Shown: positions 1-52,342, counted from the first letter of the stretch. The stretch is DNA of 64,000 nt from a virus (IMGVR_UViG_3300019752_000005:1-64000), one strand, 5' to 3'. The notes: generated from the letters alone by a model not told the origin. Numbers and translations are program-made.

Positions 1-174
1 GCAAACTCAAGGAGGGGGCTAAAATTAATTATTTAATTATTTTATTATGTATGTAATTGGTTTTATTTGGTTTTTTATTGAAACTTAATATAGGAACAGG
101 GGTTTTTTAATTTATTTAATCCCCTCTTCAACACTTGTTTTGCAGAATAATCACGGTAACCGTAACCTTTGTAC

Positions 175-245
175 TGTTGTTTCTATACCACAACGGGTAT
201 AGACAGCATTCAATGTATGGTTATTACTGTGGTATAGAAACAACA
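175..245. repeat. 18-bp perfect inverted repeat (175-192 / 228-245) with a nested 8-bp hairpin (182-189 / 196-203); possible solitary CRISPR-repeat-like unit at 179-214 (-)
   Basis: TGTTGTTTCTATACCACA and its exact reverse complement TGTGGTATAGAAACAACA; internal TCTATACC-ACAACG-GGTATAGA. The repeat itself is certain; the CRISPR interpretation is not. Confidence 0.85.
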
Positions 246-2776: not shown

Positions 2777-3247
2777 ATGAGTAATTCAAGATTCAGAGAT
2801 CAGATTAAGCATATTCAAAAGGGTTTGAAAGATATTCCTGCTAAATCTTGCGCTTACATGGCAAATAGGTTGCACAATAAAATTGTTATTTCCACACCAA
2901 GAGATGAAGGTACTGCACAAGCTAATTGGAATTTATCAGCAGGTTCACCAATAAAGGGTTTTGACCCATCTAAAACAGAACCAGAATTCAAGCTTTTACG
3001 TACAAACCAGTTGATAGAAAAGCCTGTGGCGTATATAACAAATCACACACCTTGGATTATGAATCTTGAATTTGGGACTTACCCAAACCCCAATAAAGAG
3101 CATTGGAGCAAAAAGCCACTGGGTATCGTTACACGTAAAACAGCAAAAGGATATTATGTTATACGCACAACGACAAAAGGATTTAGCTTGAGTGCACCGA
3201 ATGGAATGGTTAGAGTGGCTCTACAAGAAGCTAAGACTTATTTATAA
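2777..3247 (+). CDS. HK97 gp10-like neck/tail-completion protein
   Basis: TPRDEG..QANW, ITNHTPWIMNLEFG and S..APNGMVRV match the (S/T)PVDTG..R..W / N..PY...LEYG / QAP.G.VR pattern. Confidence 0.7.
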   Translation: MSNSRFRDQIKHIQKGLKDIPAKSCAYMANRLHNKIVISTPRDEGTAQANWNLSAGSPIKGFDPSKTEPEFKLLRTNQLIEKPVAYITNHTPWIMNLEFGTYPNPNKEHWSKKPLGIVTRKTAKGYYVIRTTTKGFSLSAPNGMVRVALQEAKTYL

Positions 3248-4493
3248 CATCCATTAGTATACTTTTACTCTCACATACAACAACACACATTTTTTGTGCG
3301 CGTGAAATCGCGGTGTAGAGCATGGCTTTATCCCATCTATCAATATGCTCGCTTGAAACTGGAATGATCACAACTGGATACTCAGATCCTTGTGCCTTAT
3401 GTATCGACATTGCGTAGTTAAGCATCAACTCACCCCCAGCTTGCTTTTGTGTGTAGAATAGCTCCCTACCACCTTCAATATTTACCCCAAATGAATAATG
3501 ACCTCTGAATTCTTTTTTCTCATTATTTACAATGCCAGATTCACCATTAAATACATTTTTAGTATAATTATTTTTACATTGCATAACAGGATCGCCCACT
3601 CTAAACTCTATACCTTCCCCCACCTGCCAACCATCTTTGTTAATAGTTTCTTGCATTAACTTATTAATGTTGGCGTGACCACATGCACCTCCTTCTTGTG
3701 GTGTGATAGTTTTAATATCAAGATAGCCGCATTTCAAATGGTTTGGTATTCTTCTTGATTGTAATTCAACAATCTCTTTTGGAATATTTTTTGACTCGAT
3801 AATAAAGAAGTCGCCACTATTACTGGTTAGGTTAGGGTAATTACTATCAAGAATAAGATCGCAATTAGATGTTATTAAGCTATCAGCCCCCTGCCTGTGA
3901 TTTTTTATTAGCGTAGATGTTGGTACGATGGATGATAAAAATTCCATAGGTCTACCATACACATCATACTCAACTGGTTTGATTTGGTTTAAATCACCAG
4001 CTAGATACAATCTAGCATCATCAGGTAGCGCATCTAACAGTGATAAAAATAATCTACCGTCAACCATTGCAGCTTCATCAACTACCACATGTTTCAGGTG
4101 TTCTGCTATGTTTCTTTTGTTATATGTGAACCCCCATTCTCCACTTTGTCTTCTGTATTTAAGGAGTCTATGTATTGTTTCCGCACTTTCCGCTAGACCA
4201 ACAACTTCCTGCAACCTGTTAGCAGCTTTACCTGTGGGAGAGCATATATGTAGGTTGTCTGTTTTGCGTTTTATGTTCTGTATTAATGAGCGAATTAATG
4301 TGGACTTGCCGCGTCCAGCTCTTCCATTCACAATGCCAACAGGGTTTGTCAGTAACGTGGTTAATGCGTTCTTTTGGCATTCAGCTAAATTTGATGGTGA
4401 TATTATATCTATATCATCTTGATACAATGGTTTATTTCGCATTAGTTGATTAATTCTATATTCAATTAGTTCTTGAATTCTATTTTTATGCAT
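3231..4493 (-). CDS. RecD/RecD2-like SF1B helicase
   Basis: Walker A GRAGRGKS, SPTGKAA, VVVDEAAMVD, GDLNQ, YAMSIHKAQGSEY, LYTAISRA. Confidence 0.9.
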   Translation of the reverse strand: MHKNRIQELIEYRINQLMRNKPLYQDDIDIISPSNLAECQKNALTTLLTNPVGIVNGRAGRGKSTLIRSLIQNIKRKTDNLHICSPTGKAANRLQEVVGLAESAETIHRLLKYRRQSGEWGFTYNKRNIAEHLKHVVVDEAAMVDGRLFLSLLDALPDDARLYLAGDLNQIKPVEYDVYGRPMEFLSSIVPTSTLIKNHRQGADSLITSNCDLILDSNYPNLTSNSGDFFIIESKNIPKEIVELQSRRIPNHLKCGYLDIKTITPQEGGACGHANINKLMQETINKDGWQVGEGIEFRVGDPVMQCKNNYTKNVFNGESGIVNNEKKEFRGHYSFGVNIEGGRELFYTQKQAGGELMLNYAMSIHKAQGSEYPVVIIPVSSEHIDRWDKAMLYTAISRAQKMCVVVCESKSILMDVINKS

Positions 4494-6443: not shown

Positions 6444-7163
6444 ATGTTGAAGATTAAAATAACACCACCTGCAAAATCGGTGGAGTATAAATACTTGGAT
6501 GTTGTGCATGATGCAGTAGTCCAAGCGTTCTTGAAAACTGGTGTAGAGGAAAGTAAGATCATAGGTCATAAGTCAGAGCCTTGGAATTTTGCTGTTGAAT
6601 CTTATTCAAAAAAAGAAAACGGGGAGTTCATTAATGTAGTGAAGTCTCTATTTATCTCGACACCATCATCAGAATTATCAAAGTTTTTGAGTGGCATTAG
6701 TTTATCTAATCTGAATTATACACGTTCCCTAACTGGTGATACCGTGAATTTTATTAATTCAGGTATTGAGATTGTACAAGACCCCATCTTACCTAACCAG
6801 CATACATTATCCGTTAATTGTATATCTCCTTTGGCTATTCGCAAGCAGGATAAAAAGAATCGAAGTTGGTATTCTGAATTTGGAGATCTTGATATTATTG
6901 CGGCGATCAATAAGCGTTTATCGCGTTTAGCTGACAGAGATATTAGTTTATTGGTATCGGTAGACAGTTTGTTCTTACGTAGTAATGAAAAGTACAGTGT
7001 TTATATTCCAATTAAAAAGAATAGTAATGGTAATGTAACATTTGTAATTGGTATGAAAGCCCCTTTAGTGTTGCAAGGGAGTGAAGAAGATTTGCGATTT
7101 GCTTGGTATGCAGGGATTGGGGAAAAAACGCGCATGGGATTTGGAGGTTTAAGTGAGTACTAA
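6444..7163 (+). CDS. cas6: CRISPR-associated endoribonuclease Cas6
   Basis: C-terminal glycine-rich loop GIGEKTRMGFG (GhGxxxxxGhG), ISPL motif, 239 aa. Confidence 0.92.
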   Translation: MLKIKITPPAKSVEYKYLDVVHDAVVQAFLKTGVEESKIIGHKSEPWNFAVESYSKKENGEFINVVKSLFISTPSSELSKFLSGISLSNLNYTRSLTGDTVNFINSGIEIVQDPILPNQHTLSVNCISPLAIRKQDKKNRSWYSEFGDLDIIAAINKRLSRLADRDISLLVSVDSLFLRSNEKYSVYIPIKKNSNGNVTFVIGMKAPLVLQGSEEDLRFAWYAGIGEKTRMGFGGLSEY

Positions 7164-9636
7164 GATGGAGCTGCAAGATATCGAACGGATATATTTCCAT
7201 ATACTAAATTATATTAAACAGAAGGAGAGTAAGAAGAGAATATCATTACTATCTGATAAGCAAGTTCAACAAGTTAACAAGGGTACGCACATTGACTGTA
7301 CCCCGTTAGCCGTGGGTTTTGGTTTAGATAAAAAGTTATCCTTACTTAGATTGGCTTTAATAAAGCAAGCTTACGTCACTTCTTGTGATGAAGATACACT
7401 GATTAATTATGGAATAGATGTCTATGATAATGGTTTACCAGTTAAAGATGAACTAAATCAGCTTAATGAACTTTTATTTATGGATAGTATTGATTTAGAT
7501 GCCATTAACGTATTAACCAAGCAATTATTTAATGAAACATATAAATTAGTTTCATTTCACACGCCGCACACACCATTCCTGACTGAAGAGTTTGTGTGTT
7601 CACTAACCACAGCTTGTGTTGACAATACATCAAAATATCCATTACTAAATCAATTTAGCGATGGATACTTAGAATGCCTATTACCAGAAAAACAAGCTGA
7701 TGATATCATTAGTAAAGCTAAAATCATTCTTTGTAAAGAAAGGCTACCATTTGATTTAGAATTAAATGTATCAGCAAAAGGATTCCCTAGCTTAAGTAAT
7801 GGGCAGCCTTGTGCAGAAGAAATTTATGACTTCTTGTCTGGGGATAAAGATGTTTCTGCAACAAGTAAGAATAAAGCTGATTTATTTCGTGTTAATGTTG
7901 ATGATTTATCAAACTTAAGAAGTGATATTGATAGTTTATTACAAAAAATAAACTTAACTGCTGATTATCCTAAGTCAGCAGGGGCAACACAACACCTTTT
8001 TTCAGTGAAAAGCATACCTAATTCAACAGTGTTTGCTGATATGTGTTTGATTTCATTAATGCTAAACCTCACTGTAGATAACAAGAAGTGCATCAACACA
8101 TCTGAGCGTGTGAATAAATTAATTGATATTGGTTTTGAATCTATGGGTTTAGAAGGTGAATTTAAAGAAGAAAGGACAGAACGTATTATTTATGCTATCC
8201 ACTTCACTGGATTAATTCAAGATAACCAACAGTTACGCGAAAAAATGCTTGTCGAGTTTAATAAATGGCTTGATGGTGATGATAATTACGCAGGATTAAA
8301 ACATAACTTCACTGGTATGGGTGCTCAAGTATCTATTGCGGTTGATAGTTATATAGATAATCTTGTTAATGGTAGGATGCAATCATTTGATAATGATGAA
8401 CTAGGTCGGTGCATATTTACAGGTGAACATGTTCCTATGTCGCAAAGTATTGACAGTAAAACAGGTATGCATGGTTTAAAAGTATCTGCTTTTTCAGGTA
8501 GAGAGAATAGACCAGAGGTGTTTAATTCAGCTAAAGCGTTAACAAATGTTGGATTTATATCTATAGCAGAACACAGATTGCGTACAATAGCCCATATGGA
8601 ACAAGGCGGGAAAAATGACGGCGTTCCAACCAATATATCAATACCAGTTGGTGTAGGCGGGTTTAGTGGTTTTAACCATAATAATGGTTTTAAACATTAT
8701 TCAGTATTTGACTTAGCAAGACAAGAAAAGAAAAAAGGTAAGGTATTTGATAGTTTCGATATTCATACTAATATGATTCGTGTGGCGCGTTTTGAATTAA
8801 TGCCACCTAAGTTAGCGGATCAGGTTGATAAGTTAAGGTTGATTATTAATGCTGCACTACGAACTGGCAGACCCACGCATATATTCCGTGGGTTACCATA
8901 TAAAAATAAAAATTTCTTTACATATGATGCTATGCCAGCTATAATTTCAAAACTTATTGGTGGGCAATCAATTAATTTTCAGCAATGTGTTGATGCCAGT
9001 AAGAAGTTAAAGTTTGCTAGTTCAGTACTTGAATATCATGATTTGGGTTATGATGCCTTAAGCAACTATCTATCCCCTGCCACTAAGTTTCAAGCCATAT
9101 GTAAAATGTGGTGCGTTATCAGAGGTAGTGGTGATTGCGGTTTATTTAATCAGCATGAATTAAGTGTTGAAATAGAGAATGAATACAGAAAGGAAATTCT
9201 ATCTATGGGAAGTAATGATATACATGAGCTTGGAAAGAAAGCGACTCGTATACAGAAATATTGTAGTTACACTGATAGTGTGATGTATCAGCAAATGTGC
9301 TTAATGTTATCTTTTGAAGCTGCTACCAGTTGCGTTAAGGTGGGGCAGAACGAAAAAGAAAGCATCGTTAGTGCGGTGTTAAGTAAGTTAATGGGAACAT
9401 TAAAGGATAAAAAACTATTAGCATCAAGTTTTAGTCGTGAAGGTGGTTCTTTAATCCAAGAGTGTGAAGAGTTTGCTAAATTATTCACGGAAAATATATG
9501 GTTTGGTATCTGTAATGGTGGATATCCAAGCCAGAGAAAGTTAAACGGCATCAAGAATATATTTAGAATGTCATTTATTATGGAACATAAAAGACTTTCA
9601 AACGAAAGAAGAAATGAACAAGAGAACAAGGTTTAA
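7153..9636 (+). CDS. cas10d: Type I-D large subunit Cas10d (Csc3)-like, HD motif apparently degenerate
   Basis: 827 aa between cas6 and cas7d. RCIFTG...VSAFSGR...NVGFISIAEHRLR parallels the central CxxC..(Y/F)SN(K/R)..R.IC..C..E..LR region of Cas10d. N-terminal FHILN resembles the H(V/I)LN helix of the HD domain. Confidence 0.75.
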   Translation: MSTKMELQDIERIYFHILNYIKQKESKKRISLLSDKQVQQVNKGTHIDCTPLAVGFGLDKKLSLLRLALIKQAYVTSCDEDTLINYGIDVYDNGLPVKDELNQLNELLFMDSIDLDAINVLTKQLFNETYKLVSFHTPHTPFLTEEFVCSLTTACVDNTSKYPLLNQFSDGYLECLLPEKQADDIISKAKIILCKERLPFDLELNVSAKGFPSLSNGQPCAEEIYDFLSGDKDVSATSKNKADLFRVNVDDLSNLRSDIDSLLQKINLTADYPKSAGATQHLFSVKSIPNSTVFADMCLISLMLNLTVDNKKCINTSERVNKLIDIGFESMGLEGEFKEERTERIIYAIHFTGLIQDNQQLREKMLVEFNKWLDGDDNYAGLKHNFTGMGAQVSIAVDSYIDNLVNGRMQSFDNDELGRCIFTGEHVPMSQSIDSKTGMHGLKVSAFSGRENRPEVFNSAKALTNVGFISIAEHRLRTIAHMEQGGKNDGVPTNISIPVGVGGFSGFNHNNGFKHYSVFDLARQEKKKGKVFDSFDIHTNMIRVARFELMPPKLADQVDKLRLIINAALRTGRPTHIFRGLPYKNKNFFTYDAMPAIISKLIGGQSINFQQCVDASKKLKFASSVLEYHDLGYDALSNYLSPATKFQAICKMWCVIRGSGDCGLFNQHELSVEIENEYRKEILSMGSNDIHELGKKATRIQKYCSYTDSVMYQQMCLMLSFEAATSCVKVGQNEKESIVSAVLSKLMGTLKDKKLLASSFSREGGSLIQECEEFAKLFTENIWFGICNGGYPSQRKLNGIKNIFRMSFIMEHKRLSNERRNEQENKV
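9205..9636 (+). CDS. cas11d: Cas11d small subunit, internal in-frame translation product of cas10d
   Basis: AAAGGA (9189-9194) 10 nt before in-frame ATG 9205 (codon 685), giving 143 aa; same arrangement as established for type I-D. Confidence 0.6.
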   Translation: MGSNDIHELGKKATRIQKYCSYTDSVMYQQMCLMLSFEAATSCVKVGQNEKESIVSAVLSKLMGTLKDKKLLASSFSREGGSLIQECEEFAKLFTENIWFGICNGGYPSQRKLNGIKNIFRMSFIMEHKRLSNERRNEQENKV

Positions 9637-9638
9637 TA

Positions 9639-10622
9639 ATGGAACAATTTAAAAAATATTTAGCTGATTTGGATGCTATAACCACAACCGTGCAAATGGA
9701 TGGTAAAAAGGAATATATACAGCCCTCACTAAAAAATGCAGCTAATTTATCTATTGTGCTGATTCGTGAAGCTATTGCACCTGTTATTTTCCGTAATGCA
9801 GAAGAAGAAATCACTGATATTGATATCAATGGTCAATCTCATGTTCGTGGTGTACCCAATAAATTTAAATATCCTGAAAAAGGTCGCGGATTGCAAGTGC
9901 TTCGTGCTTTAGGGGTTGGGGGTAAGCATTCACAAAATAAAACGGTTTTATTAAAAGGAGAAAAACCTTCTCAAGCTTATGATCTAAATACGTTGGTGTT
10001 TGGTGACTCAGTTGTACAGGATGGGCGTGTCTTATCTGTGAAGGCGGCGGTAAATTATTCTGATGCATTAAGTATTGAACGTAAAGAATTGTGTGTAGAT
10101 AGTAGTTTTCATAATGCAGCAGCAGAGGATGGTAGTCTGTTTGACTCTGAAGTAAAAAAGAATAGTAACAGCTTGTTCACACGACATTTTATCCGTCCTA
10201 ATACATTAATGGTTCAAGTGATATCAACCCGTGGTAAACTTTTACCTATGATTGGTTTGGATCACTTACTCCTTAGTATTGGTGTTGCTGGTGCTTATGG
10301 TGGGCAAACCTCTGTTACAGGAACTAATATTAAAACTCATGTTGTTGGTATTTATGGGGGTACTTATGAAAGCGCGTTATGCTCACCTTATGAGTTGGTT
10401 AAATTATTTGGTGGAGAGAATAGCTTAAGTGTTGAGCAAGTGAAGGATAAGATTCACACAGAATTAAGTGGTGTCTATCGTGACAACTTAAATAGTGATG
10501 CGGTTGAAAATCACATTACTCAATTATTACATGATTTTGATAATAACAATCTTGATAAATCTTACCAAGAAAGTAAACCTGTTATTGATAATTACTTTGA
10601 TAGTTGGTTTGGTTCTAAGTAA
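9639..10622 (+). CDS. cas7: Type I-D Cas7 (Csc2)
   Basis: KYPE..RGLQVLR, NAAAEDGSL, HFIRP and YGGQTSVTG parallel the Csc2 motifs PERL.GR.LLR, NA..E.GT, HIRP and YGA.TTRTG. Confidence 0.88.
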   Translation: MEQFKKYLADLDAITTTVQMDGKKEYIQPSLKNAANLSIVLIREAIAPVIFRNAEEEITDIDINGQSHVRGVPNKFKYPEKGRGLQVLRALGVGGKHSQNKTVLLKGEKPSQAYDLNTLVFGDSVVQDGRVLSVKAAVNYSDALSIERKELCVDSSFHNAAAEDGSLFDSEVKKNSNSLFTRHFIRPNTLMVQVISTRGKLLPMIGLDHLLLSIGVAGAYGGQTSVTGTNIKTHVVGIYGGTYESALCSPYELVKLFGGENSLSVEQVKDKIHTELSGVYRDNLNSDAVENHITQLLHDFDNNNLDKSYQESKPVIDNYFDSWFGSK

Positions 10623-11248
10623 TGAATACTATAACACCTATTAAAGCTACAACTTTAACACCATTTAGCTATCATAGCTTGATGGTGCAGGGGGGTACAA
10701 CAACATTACAGGGTGTTATATCAGACACCGCCATAATGTATGGGTTGTGCTCCACACTTGGTTTTATGCGTAACACTGTTGTATTACCTAGTAAGGATTA
10801 TAAACGCGATCTACTTAACATGCCTTTAAGAGCATCGGTGTTTACTGATGATAACCCAAGTTTATTACCGCCACTATATAGACGCATAAACTTGGAAGAG
10901 GAAGGTGGATATAAAAAGCAAGTGCAGGATACTGTAAAAAAAGGTAACCTTGGTGCTTTTCATCAAATACAGGAAGTTAATATCGGTCAAATTTTCCGCG
11001 GTGCTTTGTTTGGATTTGATATATTCCAATACACTGGATTAGATGAAGTTGTTATACGCGTGGGTCTACATCGAAATGGCATGATTAAACTTGAACGCGG
11101 TAGTGTTGATAGTGTTCGTCTTAATGCGCATACAGCTAAGTTATTTGATTGTGATTTAGATGTGGATAGGTATATGCTGCATAATATTCAATTAACATCT
11201 TGCTTATCATTACCAGATGCTAGCAATATTGTTTCTGACTGGAGGTAG
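10622..11248 (+). CDS. cas5: Type I-D Cas5 (Csc1)
   Basis: TAATG coupling to cas7; N-terminal strand plus 'ISDTAIMYGL' helix and C-terminal IRVG..R.G, as in Csc1/Cas5 RAMPs; 208 aa. Confidence 0.78.
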   Translation: MNTITPIKATTLTPFSYHSLMVQGGTTTLQGVISDTAIMYGLCSTLGFMRNTVVLPSKDYKRDLLNMPLRASVFTDDNPSLLPPLYRRINLEEEGGYKKQVQDTVKKGNLGAFHQIQEVNIGQIFRGALFGFDIFQYTGLDEVVIRVGLHRNGMIKLERGSVDSVRLNAHTAKLFDCDLDVDRYMLHNIQLTSCLSLPDASNIVSDWR

Positions 11249-11250
11249 TT

Positions 11251-11520
11251 GTGATGTCCGATAATTTAAAAGCAAGCTGGGTAAGAGAAAGTTTAGCTAA
11301 AACTAAAATGAATATGTATTTATATTCATCATCTTCAATTTTATTATTCCTGCTATGCATGTACACACCATACATGCTTATCTATTACTTTACGTTAAGT
11401 TTTGCGGCGTTAATGGTGGCTTTAACTATTTTTGTTTTTATACTGCATAAATTTTCTTGCTCATTGAGTGATAAAGAATTGTCCGCTGCTTATGAAGGTG
11501 ATAGCACTAATGACCGTTAG
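11251..11520 (+). CDS. small two-TM membrane protein
   Basis: GGAGG RBS at 11241 inside the cas5 end; two hydrophobic helices. Confidence 0.6.
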   Translation: MMSDNLKASWVRESLAKTKMNMYLYSSSSILLFLLCMYTPYMLIYYFTLSFAALMVALTIFVFILHKFSCSLSDKELSAAYEGDSTNDR

Positions 11521-12024: not shown

Positions 12025-12491
12025 ATGATGGATTACTCTGAATCCCCTAAACAATACCTAAGTGTGTTCGCATCAAGTTTATTATTTAGCATGGTTAGCT
12101 ATAGCGTACTAAGTTCTGCTGTATCAACAGGTAGCTATATTATAGGTTTTGTTGGTGCTATTTCTCTATGCGCTAGTGGGGCGACACTGCTTTACTGTAG
12201 TTTTCACTTGGCAATATCATCTATTTTTGCTTTGGCTGAAAAAATAGATGATATTATAGATTAATGAGTTACGATATAATGAATGATGATAGATGTAAAC
12301 AGTTTAGAGTTGAAAGGGGTTTAGTTTCTATATTGGTAGCTATATTAACTTCAATAGCTATAACATGTATGATATGGTCTTTCTACAGTTTACTGGTGGT
12401 AGTGGCGATTATGCTTTTAATATCACTCTCTATCCTCGCATTAAAACATTCATTGTATCTTAACTGTGAAAATAATAACGAGTGCAAATAA
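12025..12491 (+). CDS. two small membrane proteins (12025-12264, 12264-12491)
   Basis: hydrophobic ORFs with TAATG coupling. Confidence 0.55.
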
Positions 12492-13636
12492 TTATGAATA
12501 ACATAACACCATCTAACTTACAAAATAAAGCTATCAGAAGCATCTCCCAGTGGTTTAATTACCAGAAAAAGGATAAACCCTACTTCTATTTAGCTGGTTA
12601 TGCTGGGACGGGTAAAACCTCTATTGTGAATTTTGTTTTAGATGAATTAAAGCTTAACACAAAAAAGGTTTTATTCGCCACATACACTGGTAAAGCTGCC
12701 AAAGTGCTAATGAATAAATCAGGTAGACATGTGAATACAATACACAGATTGATTTATAAGTTACAAGAAACAGAAGATGATGGTATAAGTGATGATCCGT
12801 GTTTTACGTTAAACGCTAAATCTAGCTTGGTCGATGCCTCACTATTAATTCTTGATGAGGTAAGTATGGTTGATAAAGAAATGATGCGTGATATTTTATC
12901 CTTCAACACACCTGTCTTGGTTTCAGGTGACCCCATGCAGATACCTCCAGTAAATGGAGATGCTTATTTTGAAGATAAAGAACCAGATTTCTTTCTTGAT
13001 GAAATTCATAGACAGGCTTTAGACTCTCCAATTATTTACATCTCCATGTTGGTACGTGAGAAGGGTTTTTTACCCATGGGTAAATGGGGTGATGTGGTGG
13101 CAAAGATTCCTAAAAACAAGATTAAACGTGATACATGGTTGTCTGCTGATCAGGTTTTATGTGGAAAAAATAACACTAAACGAGATACGAATAGATGGTT
13201 TCGTAATGAATACGGCTTGGAGTCAATGTTTCCTGTGAGTGGGGAAAAGATTATTTGCTTAAGAAATAATTGGAATTATAATATCGTTAATGGTACAATT
13301 GCTCATATGAGAGGTGGCGTTACAAATATGCAAGAGTGGCTATTTAGAGCTACACTTGTTGATGAAGACTCCAATTTTGTTTATGAAAATGTTGAGTTAG
13401 CAGCAACCCCGAATTACAAACCAATGAGAGAGGGTGCGCGTGCTCCTAGGGGGTTGTATAAAACAACCATTAATACTGATTTTGGGTACGCTATCACATG
13501 CCATAAATCACAAGGTAGTCAATGGGATAAAGTGTTGATTATTGATGAAGGTTTTGGTGATAGAGATATGTATGGCAGGTGGCTTTACACAGCAGTCACC
13601 CGCGCTTCTGAGAAGTTGATTATTGCTGGTGTTTAA
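12482..13636 (+). CDS. RecD/Dda-like SF1B DNA helicase
   Basis: GYAGTGKT, TYTGKAA, LILDEVSMV, GDPMQIPPV, HRQA, YAITCHKSQGSQW, LYTAVTRA. Confidence 0.92.
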   Translation: MQIIMNNITPSNLQNKAIRSISQWFNYQKKDKPYFYLAGYAGTGKTSIVNFVLDELKLNTKKVLFATYTGKAAKVLMNKSGRHVNTIHRLIYKLQETEDDGISDDPCFTLNAKSSLVDASLLILDEVSMVDKEMMRDILSFNTPVLVSGDPMQIPPVNGDAYFEDKEPDFFLDEIHRQALDSPIIYISMLVREKGFLPMGKWGDVVAKIPKNKIKRDTWLSADQVLCGKNNTKRDTNRWFRNEYGLESMFPVSGEKIICLRNNWNYNIVNGTIAHMRGGVTNMQEWLFRATLVDEDSNFVYENVELAATPNYKPMREGARAPRGLYKTTINTDFGYAITCHKSQGSQWDKVLIIDEGFGDRDMYGRWLYTAVTRASEKLIIAGV

Positions 13637-15006: not shown

Positions 15007-16110
15007 ATGAAAGAAATAAAGATTTACGCTGAAGTTTTGGAAAAAAGCGCATTAGAACAGTTTGAATCTGCTATGCAGCAACCCGATGTAGTTAAAGGTG
15101 CGCTAATGCCAGATTCCCATACAGGTTACTCACTACCTATTGGTGCTGTTGTGGCAACAAATAATACTATATACCCCGCATGGGTTGGTTACGATATTGG
15201 TTGTGGTATGTGTGCTTTGAAGCTTGACGGTATAGATGTAACTGCTGTAAAAAATAACGCAAAGGATATTTTTGATGTAATTTATCGTGATATCCCTGTA
15301 GGGTTTAAAATTAATACCACTGACACAATGTACTCACTTGATGGGTTAACCAGTAAAGGTGTTGAGATAGCGGAGAGTAAGAACTACAAAAAAGCGTTGG
15401 GTAGTTTAGGTGGTGGTAATCATTTTATAGAAATCGGATATGATGAACAAGATAATGTATGGGTTGTAATTCATTCTGGTAGTCGCGGTGTGGGGCATGG
15501 TATTGCTACTCATTATATGAAATTATTTCACCCAGAGGGTAAAGCTAAAGATGGTCATCATGGTAAACATGTTGTATCACAAGATGGTAAAGATTATATT
15601 CAGGATATGAGTTGGTGTTTGGATTATGCTCTTGCTAATCGTCAAGAAATGATGTTTCGTGTTGTGAACGCGATTACAGAAAGCCTTGATATGTCTTGTT
15701 ATGAAATTGACTTTAGTGAAATTATTAATAGAAATCATAATCATGCTGTACTGCAAGATGATTTATGGGTTCACCGTAAGGGTGCTACCCATGCTGAGGA
15801 CGGTATGATGGGTGTTATACCGGGGAATATGCGTGACGGTTCTTTTATTGTGCGCGGTAAAGGTAACCTAAATTCCCTAAAATCATCATCTCATGGCGCA
15901 GGTCGTGTATTAGGGCGTAAAGCGGCGCGTCGTGAACTTAGTGTTGATAAGTTTATGGAGCAAATGAATGGTGTGCAGGCACTAGTGAGTGATAAAACTC
16001 TTGATGAGTCACCTGATGCATATAAAAATATTTTTGATGTGATGGCTGCCCAATCTGAGTTGGTTGATATTGTGGCTCATATTAAACCACTGATTAATAT
16101 TAAAGGTTAG
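15007..16110 (+). CDS. rtcB: RtcB family RNA ligase
   Basis: MPDSH, GYDIGCG, GSLGGGNHF, IHSGSRG, HNH, HRKGA, PGNM, SSHGAGR, DESP.AYK. Confidence 0.95.
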   Translation: MKEIKIYAEVLEKSALEQFESAMQQPDVVKGALMPDSHTGYSLPIGAVVATNNTIYPAWVGYDIGCGMCALKLDGIDVTAVKNNAKDIFDVIYRDIPVGFKINTTDTMYSLDGLTSKGVEIAESKNYKKALGSLGGGNHFIEIGYDEQDNVWVVIHSGSRGVGHGIATHYMKLFHPEGKAKDGHHGKHVVSQDGKDYIQDMSWCLDYALANRQEMMFRVVNAITESLDMSCYEIDFSEIINRNHNHAVLQDDLWVHRKGATHAEDGMMGVIPGNMRDGSFIVRGKGNLNSLKSSSHGAGRVLGRKAARRELSVDKFMEQMNGVQALVSDKTLDESPDAYKNIFDVMAAQSELVDIVAHIKPLINIKG

Positions 16111-51595: not shown

Positions 51596-52342
51596 CTAAT
51601 TTTTCAACCACTCAGTGCCACTTATTTTATATTTTAAGTTAAAGTGCTCAATATCATCTTTAATTTCTATTGCAAAGCAATACTTGGGGTGCGATTCATC
51701 AAGCATCTCTTCAAAAATTTCTGCAACATGAAGCTCCCCACCACATAACCAAGGCTCCTTCAGCATGTTTTCCATTGTACCAACAATACCGAAAGACCTT
51801 GTAACCACATTGCTTGGTTTAGAAATATGCTTATCTTCCATATCACTGGATATCTGGTATTTTATTTTGTAAACACCAATCTTACGAATAATAGCCTGCA
51901 CTAACTTAGGTAACCCACATTTAATATATTGCTGGTAATCAGCACCCAAATCGTCCTTCATTTTTTCCTTAGCCACTTCATCCCAGTTTGATGGGCATGT
52001 GATATAGATAGTGTATGGCATACGTGGTGTTAAACCGTTATGTTTCATAGATGATAAGTGGGATAGACAACAAAAATCATCTATTGCACATATTATTTCA
52101 TAAGGGTTATGCTGATACTTTCCTAAGACATGATATGTATCATAATCAAATTCACTTCTATTTAACACACCAGATTCCAGTGCGCTATTTAAGTGGTTGT
52201 AGAAGATATCACTACTTGGTGTTTCTGTGTGAACTTCCTTATAAAAATTAAAGATAATCAAACCAAGATCATATAATCTTAAAACTGGTTTTTTTTGTTT
52301 ACCTATTAATAAGTTAATCTCTCTTTGGTATTTCGACATCAT
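51596..52342 (-). CDS. AbiEi-family (type IV TA) antitoxin-like protein
   Basis: N-terminal wHTH-like region; CLSHLSSM..NGLT.R.P.TIYIT and LCGG..HV motifs. Confidence 0.6.
   Translation of the reverse strand: MMSKYQREINLLIGKQKKPVLRLYDLGLIIFNFYKEVHTETPSSDIFYNHLNSALESGVLNRSEFDYDTYHVLGKYQHNPYEIICAIDDFCCLSHLSSMKHNGLTPRMPYTIYITCPSNWDEVAKEKMKDDLGADYQQYIKCGLPKLVQAIIRKIGVYKIKYQISSDMEDKHISKPSNVVTRSFGIVGTMENMLKEPWLCGGELHVAEIFEEMLDESHPKYCFAIEIKDDIEHFNLKYKISGTEWLKN

Follow-up and report, generated by a model that had tools for sequence, protein, structure and literature searches.

A tailed phage from microbial mats carries an operon that, judged by its profile matches, is a complete type I-D CRISPR (short palindromic repeats, clustered and regularly interspaced) effector, encoding Cas6d, Cas10d, probably Cas11d, Cas7d, and Cas5d. 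The operon lies at positions 6444-11248 of IMGVR_UViG_3300019752_000005:1-64000, the 64,000-nucleotide stretch analyzed here (the window), which makes up bases 1-64000 of a complete phage genome held in one 76,625-bp contig. In the large subunit of this effector, Cas10d, the HD nuclease region is deleted and replaced by 52 unrelated residues. We tentatively read the module as a guide-less, nuclease-deleted Cascade (the CRISPR-associated antiviral defense complex) that would be programmed wholly by the CRISPR RNAs (crRNAs) of its host, and that would either neutralize a host I-D system or redirect its spacer memory for the phage; we give this reading slightly less than an even chance of being right.

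A type I-D effector operon and the HD region of its large subunit

An earlier reading of the window, made from the sequence alone, had described four coupled open reading frames (ORFs) of type I-D at this place, and their exact coordinates and junctions are confirmed: cas6d and cas10d overlap, a 2-nt gap precedes cas7d, and cas7d and cas5d overlap in TAATG. The assignment to type I-D stands as well, as I-D profiles from PADLOC match all four proteins and the fold of Cas10d matches solved I-D structures. The features of the operon are listed below.

6444..7163, plus strand: cas6d, crRNA-processing endoribonuclease (239 aa; PADLOC Cas6d 1.1e-75, full profile)
7153..9636, plus strand: cas10d, large subunit without the HD (Cas3'') nuclease region (PADLOC Cas10_Id 4.4e-169)
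7231..7296, plus strand: retained N-terminal Cas10d motif ...LSDKQVQQVNKGTHID, residues 27-48 (BLASTP and tblastn alignments)
7297..7452, plus strand: 52-residue replacement segment of Cas10d, residues 49-100, in place of the ~176-residue HD core
9205..9636, plus strand: probable internal cas11d (small subunit), 143 aa, in frame inside cas10d
9639..10622, plus strand: cas7d (csc2), backbone subunit (327 aa; PADLOC Cas7d 1.3e-15)
10622..11248, plus strand: cas5d (csc1), subunit binding the 5' handle (208 aa; PADLOC Cas5d 9.1e-89, full profile)

Translation of cas10d could begin at GTG 7153 (827 aa, overlapping cas6d) or at ATG 7165 (823 aa, as in the database protein P0001). Cas6d is also matched by Pfam Cas_Cas6_C (3e-11) and retains the C-terminal glycine-rich loop GxGxKxRxGxG at residues 224-234, and Cas7d is matched by Pfam Csc2 (9.5e-16) and TIGR03157 (2.3e-13). 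The operon probably encodes Cas11d from an internal start in cas10d, as its alignment to relatives suggests. The candidate ATG at 9205 has AAGGA 10 nt upstream, a methionine near-invariant in the clade (29/32 rows, with valine in two more) stands two columns upstream of it, and 30/32 clade rows have a methionine within 8 columns of the candidate start. Internal initiation of Cas11d is established for type I-D systems (bioRxiv 10.1101/2020.04.18.045682).

Relatives of this operon were gathered from 34 cellular loci, which belong to Desulfobacterales, Thiomargarita, various Proteobacteria, and others, and from metagenomes, where L036 and L037 were retrieved; L037 (Ga0193950) is the nearest cellular locus to the phage. 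The I-D clade of loci L003-L037 is spread over Thermodesulfobacteriota, Pseudomonadota, Acidobacteriota, and others, in which the operon begins with cas6. The complete loci examined, L037 and L003 (Desulfonema magnum), have the order cas6d-cas10d-cas7d-cas5d-cas3'-cas4-cas1-cas2-array, and the phage module corresponds to the first four genes of this ancestral order. Identity to the L037 proteins is 70% for Cas7d, 64% for Cas5d, 49% for Cas6d, and about 41-42% for the body of Cas10d. The lengths of Cas6d, Cas7d, and Cas5d are within 3 residues of their L037 counterparts, and none of the three has gained a nuclease domain. L037 itself has an extra ORF of 909 aa between cas5d and cas3' (L037:13991-16720), whose C-terminus is like that of a type IV methyl-directed restriction enzyme (PADLOC mREase_IV 1e-7).

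Phage Cas10d matches the PADLOC Cas10_Id profile over positions 224-931 of 934, leaving positions 1-223 unmatched; L037 Cas10d matches positions 1-931. In a BLASTP alignment to the nearest relative, P0002, phage residues 27-48 correspond to residues 32-53 and phage residues 101-826 to residues 230-976, and the retained N-terminal motif also aligns to L037 residues 31-54 (tblastn). Nothing in the phage protein corresponds to residues 54-229 of P0002 (176 aa, with LxDHLxSV, AFLHDxDK, and RLADxLDG as motifs); there, the unrelated replacement segment keeps the reading frame. Because the N-terminal motif at residues 27-48 is retained, the HD region was lost by internal deletion or replacement and not by 5' truncation. 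All 36 cellular Cas10d homologs examined carry the extra 100-200+ N-terminal residues. HMMER, run exhaustively against 1.84 billion representatives, returned 135 relatives; the phage protein forms a singleton cluster. Other candidates for an HD-less Cas10d were rejected, P0020 and P0045 as annotated partial and P0055 because its cluster contains a 956-aa member.

Structure prediction gives the same boundaries. The AlphaFold2 model of phage Cas10d has a predicted local distance difference test (pLDDT) score of 79, with low values over residues 1-130, the replacement segment included. Residues 112-820 of the model superpose on residues 215-975 of Synechocystis Cas10d, 7sba_I (VIA-align Z 16.0, 468 residues aligned), and the model has no structural counterpart for 7sba_I residues 1-214, the HD domain. 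Its top Foldseek matches are 7sba_I, 6thh_C, 6yes_B, and 7sbb_I. A sequence search of the PDB with Cas10d returned nothing, and the solved I-D structures were reached by fold comparison only.

Cleavage of double-stranded DNA (dsDNA) by type I-D systems requires the Cas10d HD domain, Cas3', and a protospacer-adjacent motif (PAM) (Lin et al. 2020, PMC7544194; Schwartz et al. 2022, PMC9123187). Canonical interference is therefore impossible for the phage complex. The loss of dsDNA interference is more thorough than the sequence-only reading had claimed, since the HD region itself is deleted. That reading's inference of DNA binding "without cleavage" is overstated, because the Cas7d backbone of one I-D system cuts single-stranded DNA (ssDNA) (PMC7544194). 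Its proposal that the phage might hijack a host Cas3' fails as a route back to dsDNA cutting, as the I-D nuclease sits in the missing HD domain and a borrowed Cas3' would not replace it.

Constraint on the module was gauged by counting how many near-invariant columns, those at least 95% conserved among ~31 cellular members, the phage retains. Retention is 19/21 for Cas6d (90%), 75/81 for Cas7d (93%), 30/33 for Cas5d (91%), and 54/86 for Cas10d (63%). Leave-one-out minima of the cellular members are 0.82 for Cas6d, 0.93 for Cas7d, and 0.91 for Cas5d, which places the phage at or near the low end, whereas cellular Cas10d members retain at least 94% of their invariant columns. The Cas10d losses (n=32) divide into 18 in the HD region and 14 scattered through the body. 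Mean identity of Cas7d to the rest of the clade is 0.500 for the phage vs 0.506 for L037, with no acceleration; for the Cas10d body it is 0.286 vs 0.362, an acceleration also seen in the phage-L037 identity of 0.42, lower than in any of 103 cellular pairs with comparable divergence of Cas7 (minimum 0.46). A tree of Cas6, Cas7, and Cas5 combined places the phage as the sister of L037 (support 100), with a branch length of 0.77 vs 0.20. Since the proteins differ by 30-59% from the nearest relative and the terminal branch is long, the module has resided in phage for a long time. On these comparisons, the RNA-handling backbone is under ordinary purifying selection, and the large subunit, besides losing its nuclease, has changed in other parts.

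Helicase, adaptation genes, and guides across the complete phage genome

The absence of a gene or guide carries weight here because the phage genome is complete. It is bounded by a perfect 123-bp inverted terminal repeat (ITR), window 1-123 being the exact reverse complement of genome 76503-76625 (L001 16503-16625); the IMG/VR record is classed as ITR-ended, and CheckV gives a completeness of 100%. Independent mat-metagenome assemblies of the phage measure 76,439 and 76,661 bp, and contigs from four mat sequencing runs are identical to the window, with 0 variants and 0 joints.

The sequence-only reading had noted that Cas3', adaptation genes, a transposase, and an array are absent from 64 kb, and this is upheld across the entire 76,625 bp. 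Six-frame searches of the complete genome gave no match at E<=1 to Cas3d (PADLOC), Cas1 (PF01867), TniQ (PF06527), the rve transposase (PF00665), or the HD families (Cas3_HD, generic HD, and cas3_HD). When the complete genome was searched by tblastn, the Cas3d proteins of L037 and L003 found nothing below E 0.4, and Cas4, Cas1, and Cas2 of L037 found nothing significant. No CRISPR array was detected by repeat finders, Tandem Repeats Finder, a mismatch-tolerant scan, or Rfam, which includes CRISPR-DR families.

The repeats of the cellular relatives allow a more specific search. In relatives whose contig extends far enough, an array is present, with a 28-nt repeat of consensus GTTAnCnATCCCCATGAGGGGTTATGAG and a period of ~64 nt. 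The repeat core TCCCCATGAGGGGT is nearly invariant even between systems with 23% Cas10d identity, which makes the clade repeat a sharp probe. Mismatch searches of the phage, for which the consensus and the AT-richer variant from L037 served as queries, gave weak partial matches only and no credible copy. When 25 distinct clade repeats were turned into a covariance model and this was searched with filters off, the best E against the phage was 1.5, with no match containing the hairpin. The spacers of the relatives' arrays (n=817, 20 of them from L037) gave only chance matches of 11-17 nt to the phage.

Solitary full-length copies of the clade's 28-nt repeat occur in other viruses, one in each of four IMG/VR viral contigs:

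L038:1043-1070: solitary clade repeat
L039:7516-7543: solitary clade repeat
L040:9481-9508: solitary clade repeat
L041:1450-1477, minus strand: solitary clade repeat

Over its 3' 20 nt, the repeat of L040 (GC 0.37) differs from the L037 repeat by one base. A further contig has a four-repeat array at its end (L042:15-298), and L038-L042 share no proteins with the cas-operon phage. The solitary repeats in L038-L041 are candidate RNA anti-CRISPRs, as their layout matches that of known ones, and their presence in other viruses shows that the I-D clade is targeted by viral counter-measures. The mats also hold short contigs from run X4 that are 90-95% alike to part of cas7d (window 9762-9883), which places a second, closely related cas7d, a host's or another phage's, in the same mats.

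An 18-nt motif, TTGTGGTA-N5-ACAAC, has only four copies in the genome, all 180-270 nt from the genome ends:

window 176-193, minus strand: left-end copy of TTGTGGTA-N5-ACAAC
window 227-244, plus strand: left-end copy
genome 76359-76376 (L001 16359): right-end copy
genome 76423-76440 (L001 16423): right-end copy

The right-end units are two exact 24-nt copies set 64 nt apart, and the "spacer" part is also alike, with indels, over ~51 nt. Because the similarity runs through this part too, the units are best explained as a 64-nt tandem duplication. They agree with the clade repeat at no more than 9/28 positions (ungapped), and the left-end element 143-245 does so at no more than 16/28. The motif's position points to a site that an end-processing or packaging protein probably binds, and not to a CRISPR repeat.

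As the sequence-only reading had also stated, the operon stands amid phage genes. Its neighborhood is that of a tailed phage, with a large terminase, an SLT transglycosylase, a DnaN clamp, ribonucleotide reductase, and RtcB, and further genes encode a primase-helicase, a superfamily 2 (SF2) helicase, and two RecD/Dda-like helicases. The GC content is ~0.34 for the phage vs 0.365 for L037. Every cultured relative of the large terminase is less than 40% identical to it and comes from phages of varied Proteobacteria, which assigns no host. The operon found no match among GenBank phages by blastn, and scans of IMG/VR with protein and alignment queries found no relative.

Several observations concern the surrounding genes. 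The genes of the ITR-ended phage include those for a clamp, a primase-helicase, and a terminase, and no recognizable protein-primed polymerase or transposase was found among them. The RtcB RNA ligase (15007-16110; Pfam 1.6e-89) is located 3.8 kb downstream of the cas operon in the same strand block; it could mend RNAs cut by host defense nucleases, and this arm of the genome may hold counter-defense genes. The RecD/Dda-like helicase at 12482-13636 (plus strand) is also a partial match to PADLOC PDC-M16A models. An ORF of 89 aa (11251-11520) starts 3 nt past the cas5d stop; it has no family match and no counterpart in the cellular loci, and sub-threshold Atlas leads, its only ones, suggest a small two-helix membrane protein. 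The small ORFs on either side of the operon gave no Pfam, NCBIfam, or PHROG match among the ORFs scanned per library. Pfam likewise lends no support at E<=0.01 to an AbiEi-like antitoxin at 51596-52342 or to dead ABC-ATPase halves at genome ~66590-67646 (L001 6590-7646). In a promoter and terminator scan, promoter-like sites were rarer than in shuffled sequence.

Possible functions of the module

From the sequence, we infer that the phage has repurposed a I-D Cascade. To our knowledge, the sole role of Cas6d is to cut the repeat and hold the 3' hairpin of the crRNA. Since Cas6d is retained and the phage has no repeat for it, guides would have to be supplied in trans by a host array with repeats of the same family. 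We consider it plausible, at somewhat less than even probability, that the effector is disabled for dsDNA cleavage and loaded with host crRNAs in trans, with counter-defense as its most likely purpose. Of the roles that the sequence-only reading had listed, the two in best agreement with the data are a dominant-negative decoy and the exploitation of host crRNAs.

In this proposal, the phage Cas6d and the Cas5d-Cas7d backbone would recognize the conserved 28-nt repeat of the source clade, and the complex would be loaded in trans with crRNAs cut from the array of its host, presumably a low-GC mat bacterium with an L037-like system. Early in infection, Cas6d and the backbone would divert host pre-crRNA into complexes unable to cut dsDNA. 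These decoys, or HD-less Cas10d incorporated into host backbones, would sit on protospacers and leave them intact. The module would thus act as a whole-complex, dominant-negative analogue of the single-subunit viral Cas-homolog anti-CRISPRs.

Several points weigh against this proposal. Of the relatives' spacers (20 from L037), 0/817 match the phage. The kinetic benefit is uncertain, because a newly made decoy would not remove preassembled host complexes. In AcrIB3 and AcrIB4, a single dominant-negative subunit is enough for inhibition (Katz et al., bioRxiv 10.1101/2023.06.24.545427); as one subunit suffices and yet all subunits of the phage module are constrained, a guide-dependent function that benefits the phage may be at work. 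Cas10d is a database singleton, with no second lineage that would show recurrent selection, and the ORFs neighboring the cas operon have no recognizable anti-defense identity.

Such a guide-dependent function could take the form of silencing, in which a complex loaded with host crRNAs blocks the transcription or replication of competing phages or plasmids and so provides superinfection exclusion without Cas3'-driven shredding. It is consistent with this that every effector subunit is constrained, among them the probable Cas11d, which stable R-loops require; nuclease-free Cascades silence targets in a CRISPR interference (CRISPRi) assay (Katz et al., bioRxiv 10.1101/2023.06.24.545427), and viral mini-arrays are known to serve inter-virus competition. 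We regard silencing as unlikely, however, because the host's intact I-D system would already destroy the same targets, leaving its added value doubtful, and because the 14 changed invariant positions in the Cas10d body suit a relaxed or altered function better than preserved PAM-dependent dsDNA binding. A very unlikely alternative is that the effector is still a nuclease, with Cas7d using guides supplied in trans to cleave ssDNA replication intermediates or ssDNA elements. Csc2 (Cas7d) cuts ssDNA at 6-nt intervals without HD, Cas3', or PAM, and still needs Cas10d/SS to be structurally present (Lin et al. 2020, PMC7544194). Of the phage subunits, Cas7d is conserved best, and it keeps nearly all conserved acidic and histidine residues. 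This activity has been demonstrated for the Saccharolobus islandicus system only, however; the corresponding loop in the Synechocystis structure is up to 16 A from the target strand (PMC9123187), the catalytic residues are not mappable onto this distant clade, and the source of guides is still missing. Were the phage to make its own, non-canonical guide, Cas6d would process the subterminal right-end units or the element 143-245, and the 64-nt period of the former does equal the repeat-plus-spacer period of the source clade. We hold this to be highly improbable: the motif's confinement to the genome ends is the pattern of an end-associated binding site, the right-end units are a tandem duplication with poor likeness to the clade repeat (at most 9/28, and at most 16/28 for element 143-245), the covariance model and Rfam find nothing at the terminal units or at 143-245, and a Cas6d that retains 90% of the clade's invariant residues argues for unchanged repeat specificity.

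The module might also have no function at all, as a fragment of a host I-D operon caught by illegitimate recombination and now drifting. Partial capture would lead one to expect what is seen, an ancestral gene order that stops after its fourth gene, and Cas10d is both degraded relative to the clade and a database singleton. That it is a relic is nevertheless quite unlikely, because the backbone is still constrained after long residence in phage: 90-93% of invariant residues survive in Cas7, Cas5, and Cas6, and the distance of Cas7 from the clade is no greater than it is for the cellular sister L037. The four ORFs are also intact and still translationally coupled, the HD region was lost in frame with the flanking N-terminal motif kept, and the sequence is identical in four mat samples. 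RecD or DinG helicases act in nuclease-free type IV systems, and the phage effector could by analogy rely on the RecD/Dda-like superfamily 1 (SF1) helicase at 12482-13636 in place of Cas3'. This gene is co-oriented with the operon, 1.2 kb downstream, and matches PADLOC typeIV_RecD at 1.8e-30. The match, however, is limited to profile positions 353-484 of 763, the generic SF1B ATPase core, and is outscored by other RecD-like defense models. Five unrelated small ORFs separate cas5d from the helicase, a second similar helicase (3231-4493, minus strand) is found on the operon's other flank, Dda-like helicases are ordinary phage replication genes, and no relative shows an association of helicase and operon. 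Helicase-assisted interference of this kind is the least probable of the explanations weighed here.

Relation to known systems

The phage module has its effector genes, their order, and the position of the putative Cas11d start in common with canonical I-D systems (L037, L003). The canonical loci add cas3', cas4, cas1, cas2, long arrays of the 28-nt repeat, and an N-terminal HD region of Cas10d, all of which the phage lacks. I-D systems of CRISPR-associated transposons (CASTs) have lost Cas3', and their HD activity by point mutation (Hsieh and Peters 2023, PMC9881144; review PMC11656645). They are like the phage module in having lost Cas3' and HD nuclease activity while retaining the subunits for crRNA binding and target recognition. 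The two differ in that CAST I-D has a point-mutated HD, Tn7-like TnsB, TnsC, and TniQ, and short arrays or guides, whereas the phage module has a deleted HD, no transposition genes, and no guide, and is carried by a tailed phage.

Virus-encoded Cas homologs are known as inhibitors. AcrIB3 is a Cas5 homolog and AcrIB4 a homolog of the Cas8b C-terminus, both leading to defective Cascade assembly (bioRxiv 10.1101/2023.06.24.545427), and crRNA is sequestered by AcrVIA2, which is homologous to Cas3 (Katz et al., bioRxiv 10.1101/2023.06.24.545427). Like the phage module, these are Cas proteins encoded by viruses with no array or complete CRISPR-Cas locus. They are single orphan genes, however, and the phage has a four-gene operon for a five-protein effector that is mostly normally constrained. 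The survey of Katz et al. discarded matches lying in cas operons (bioRxiv 10.1101/2023.06.24.545427), and a module of the phage type would therefore escape it. A variant II-C2 phage Cas9 with an inactivated RuvC has been proposed to sequester crRNA (Altae-Tran et al. 2023, as cited in PMC11656645 and PMC12669027). It is likewise a phage-borne, nuclease-impaired effector, but a class 2 single protein with its own trans-activating crRNA (tracrRNA), whereas the phage module is class 1 and multi-subunit and encodes no RNA. Partial systems of huge phages and array-less III-G systems are without a nuclease, adaptation module, or array, and their use of crRNAs in trans is inferred. These are found mainly in genomes >200 kb or in cellular loci; here, the carrier is a 76.6-kb phage, the type is I-D, and a domain has been deleted. 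According to a review, CRISPR systems are rare in phages <200 kb. RNA anti-CRISPRs are recognized by a solitary repeat of the host type, which the phage does not carry.

Interference-defective CRISPR systems in transposons, plasmids, and huge phages are thus known already, as are single viral Cas-homolog anti-CRISPRs. The literature searched and the 2025 classification contain no phage-borne, HD-deleted, guide-less I-D Cascade. Koonin and Makarova (2024) describe as an "enigma" that viruses have widely recruited crRNA mimics as inhibitors and apparently not Cas proteins. The hypothesis that the phage complex is loaded with host crRNAs is directly testable, because the module is compact and clonable and its cognate repeat is known from relatives. 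If it is true, a virus can use an entire effector complex to parasitize the immune memory of its host. Such a complex would be the counterpart, in protein form, of RNA anti-CRISPRs, and it would bear on this enigma and even answer it directly. The module would then also represent a naturally minimized, nuclease-free I-D Cascade, with a Cas10d ~150 residues shorter, of possible use for programmable DNA binding.

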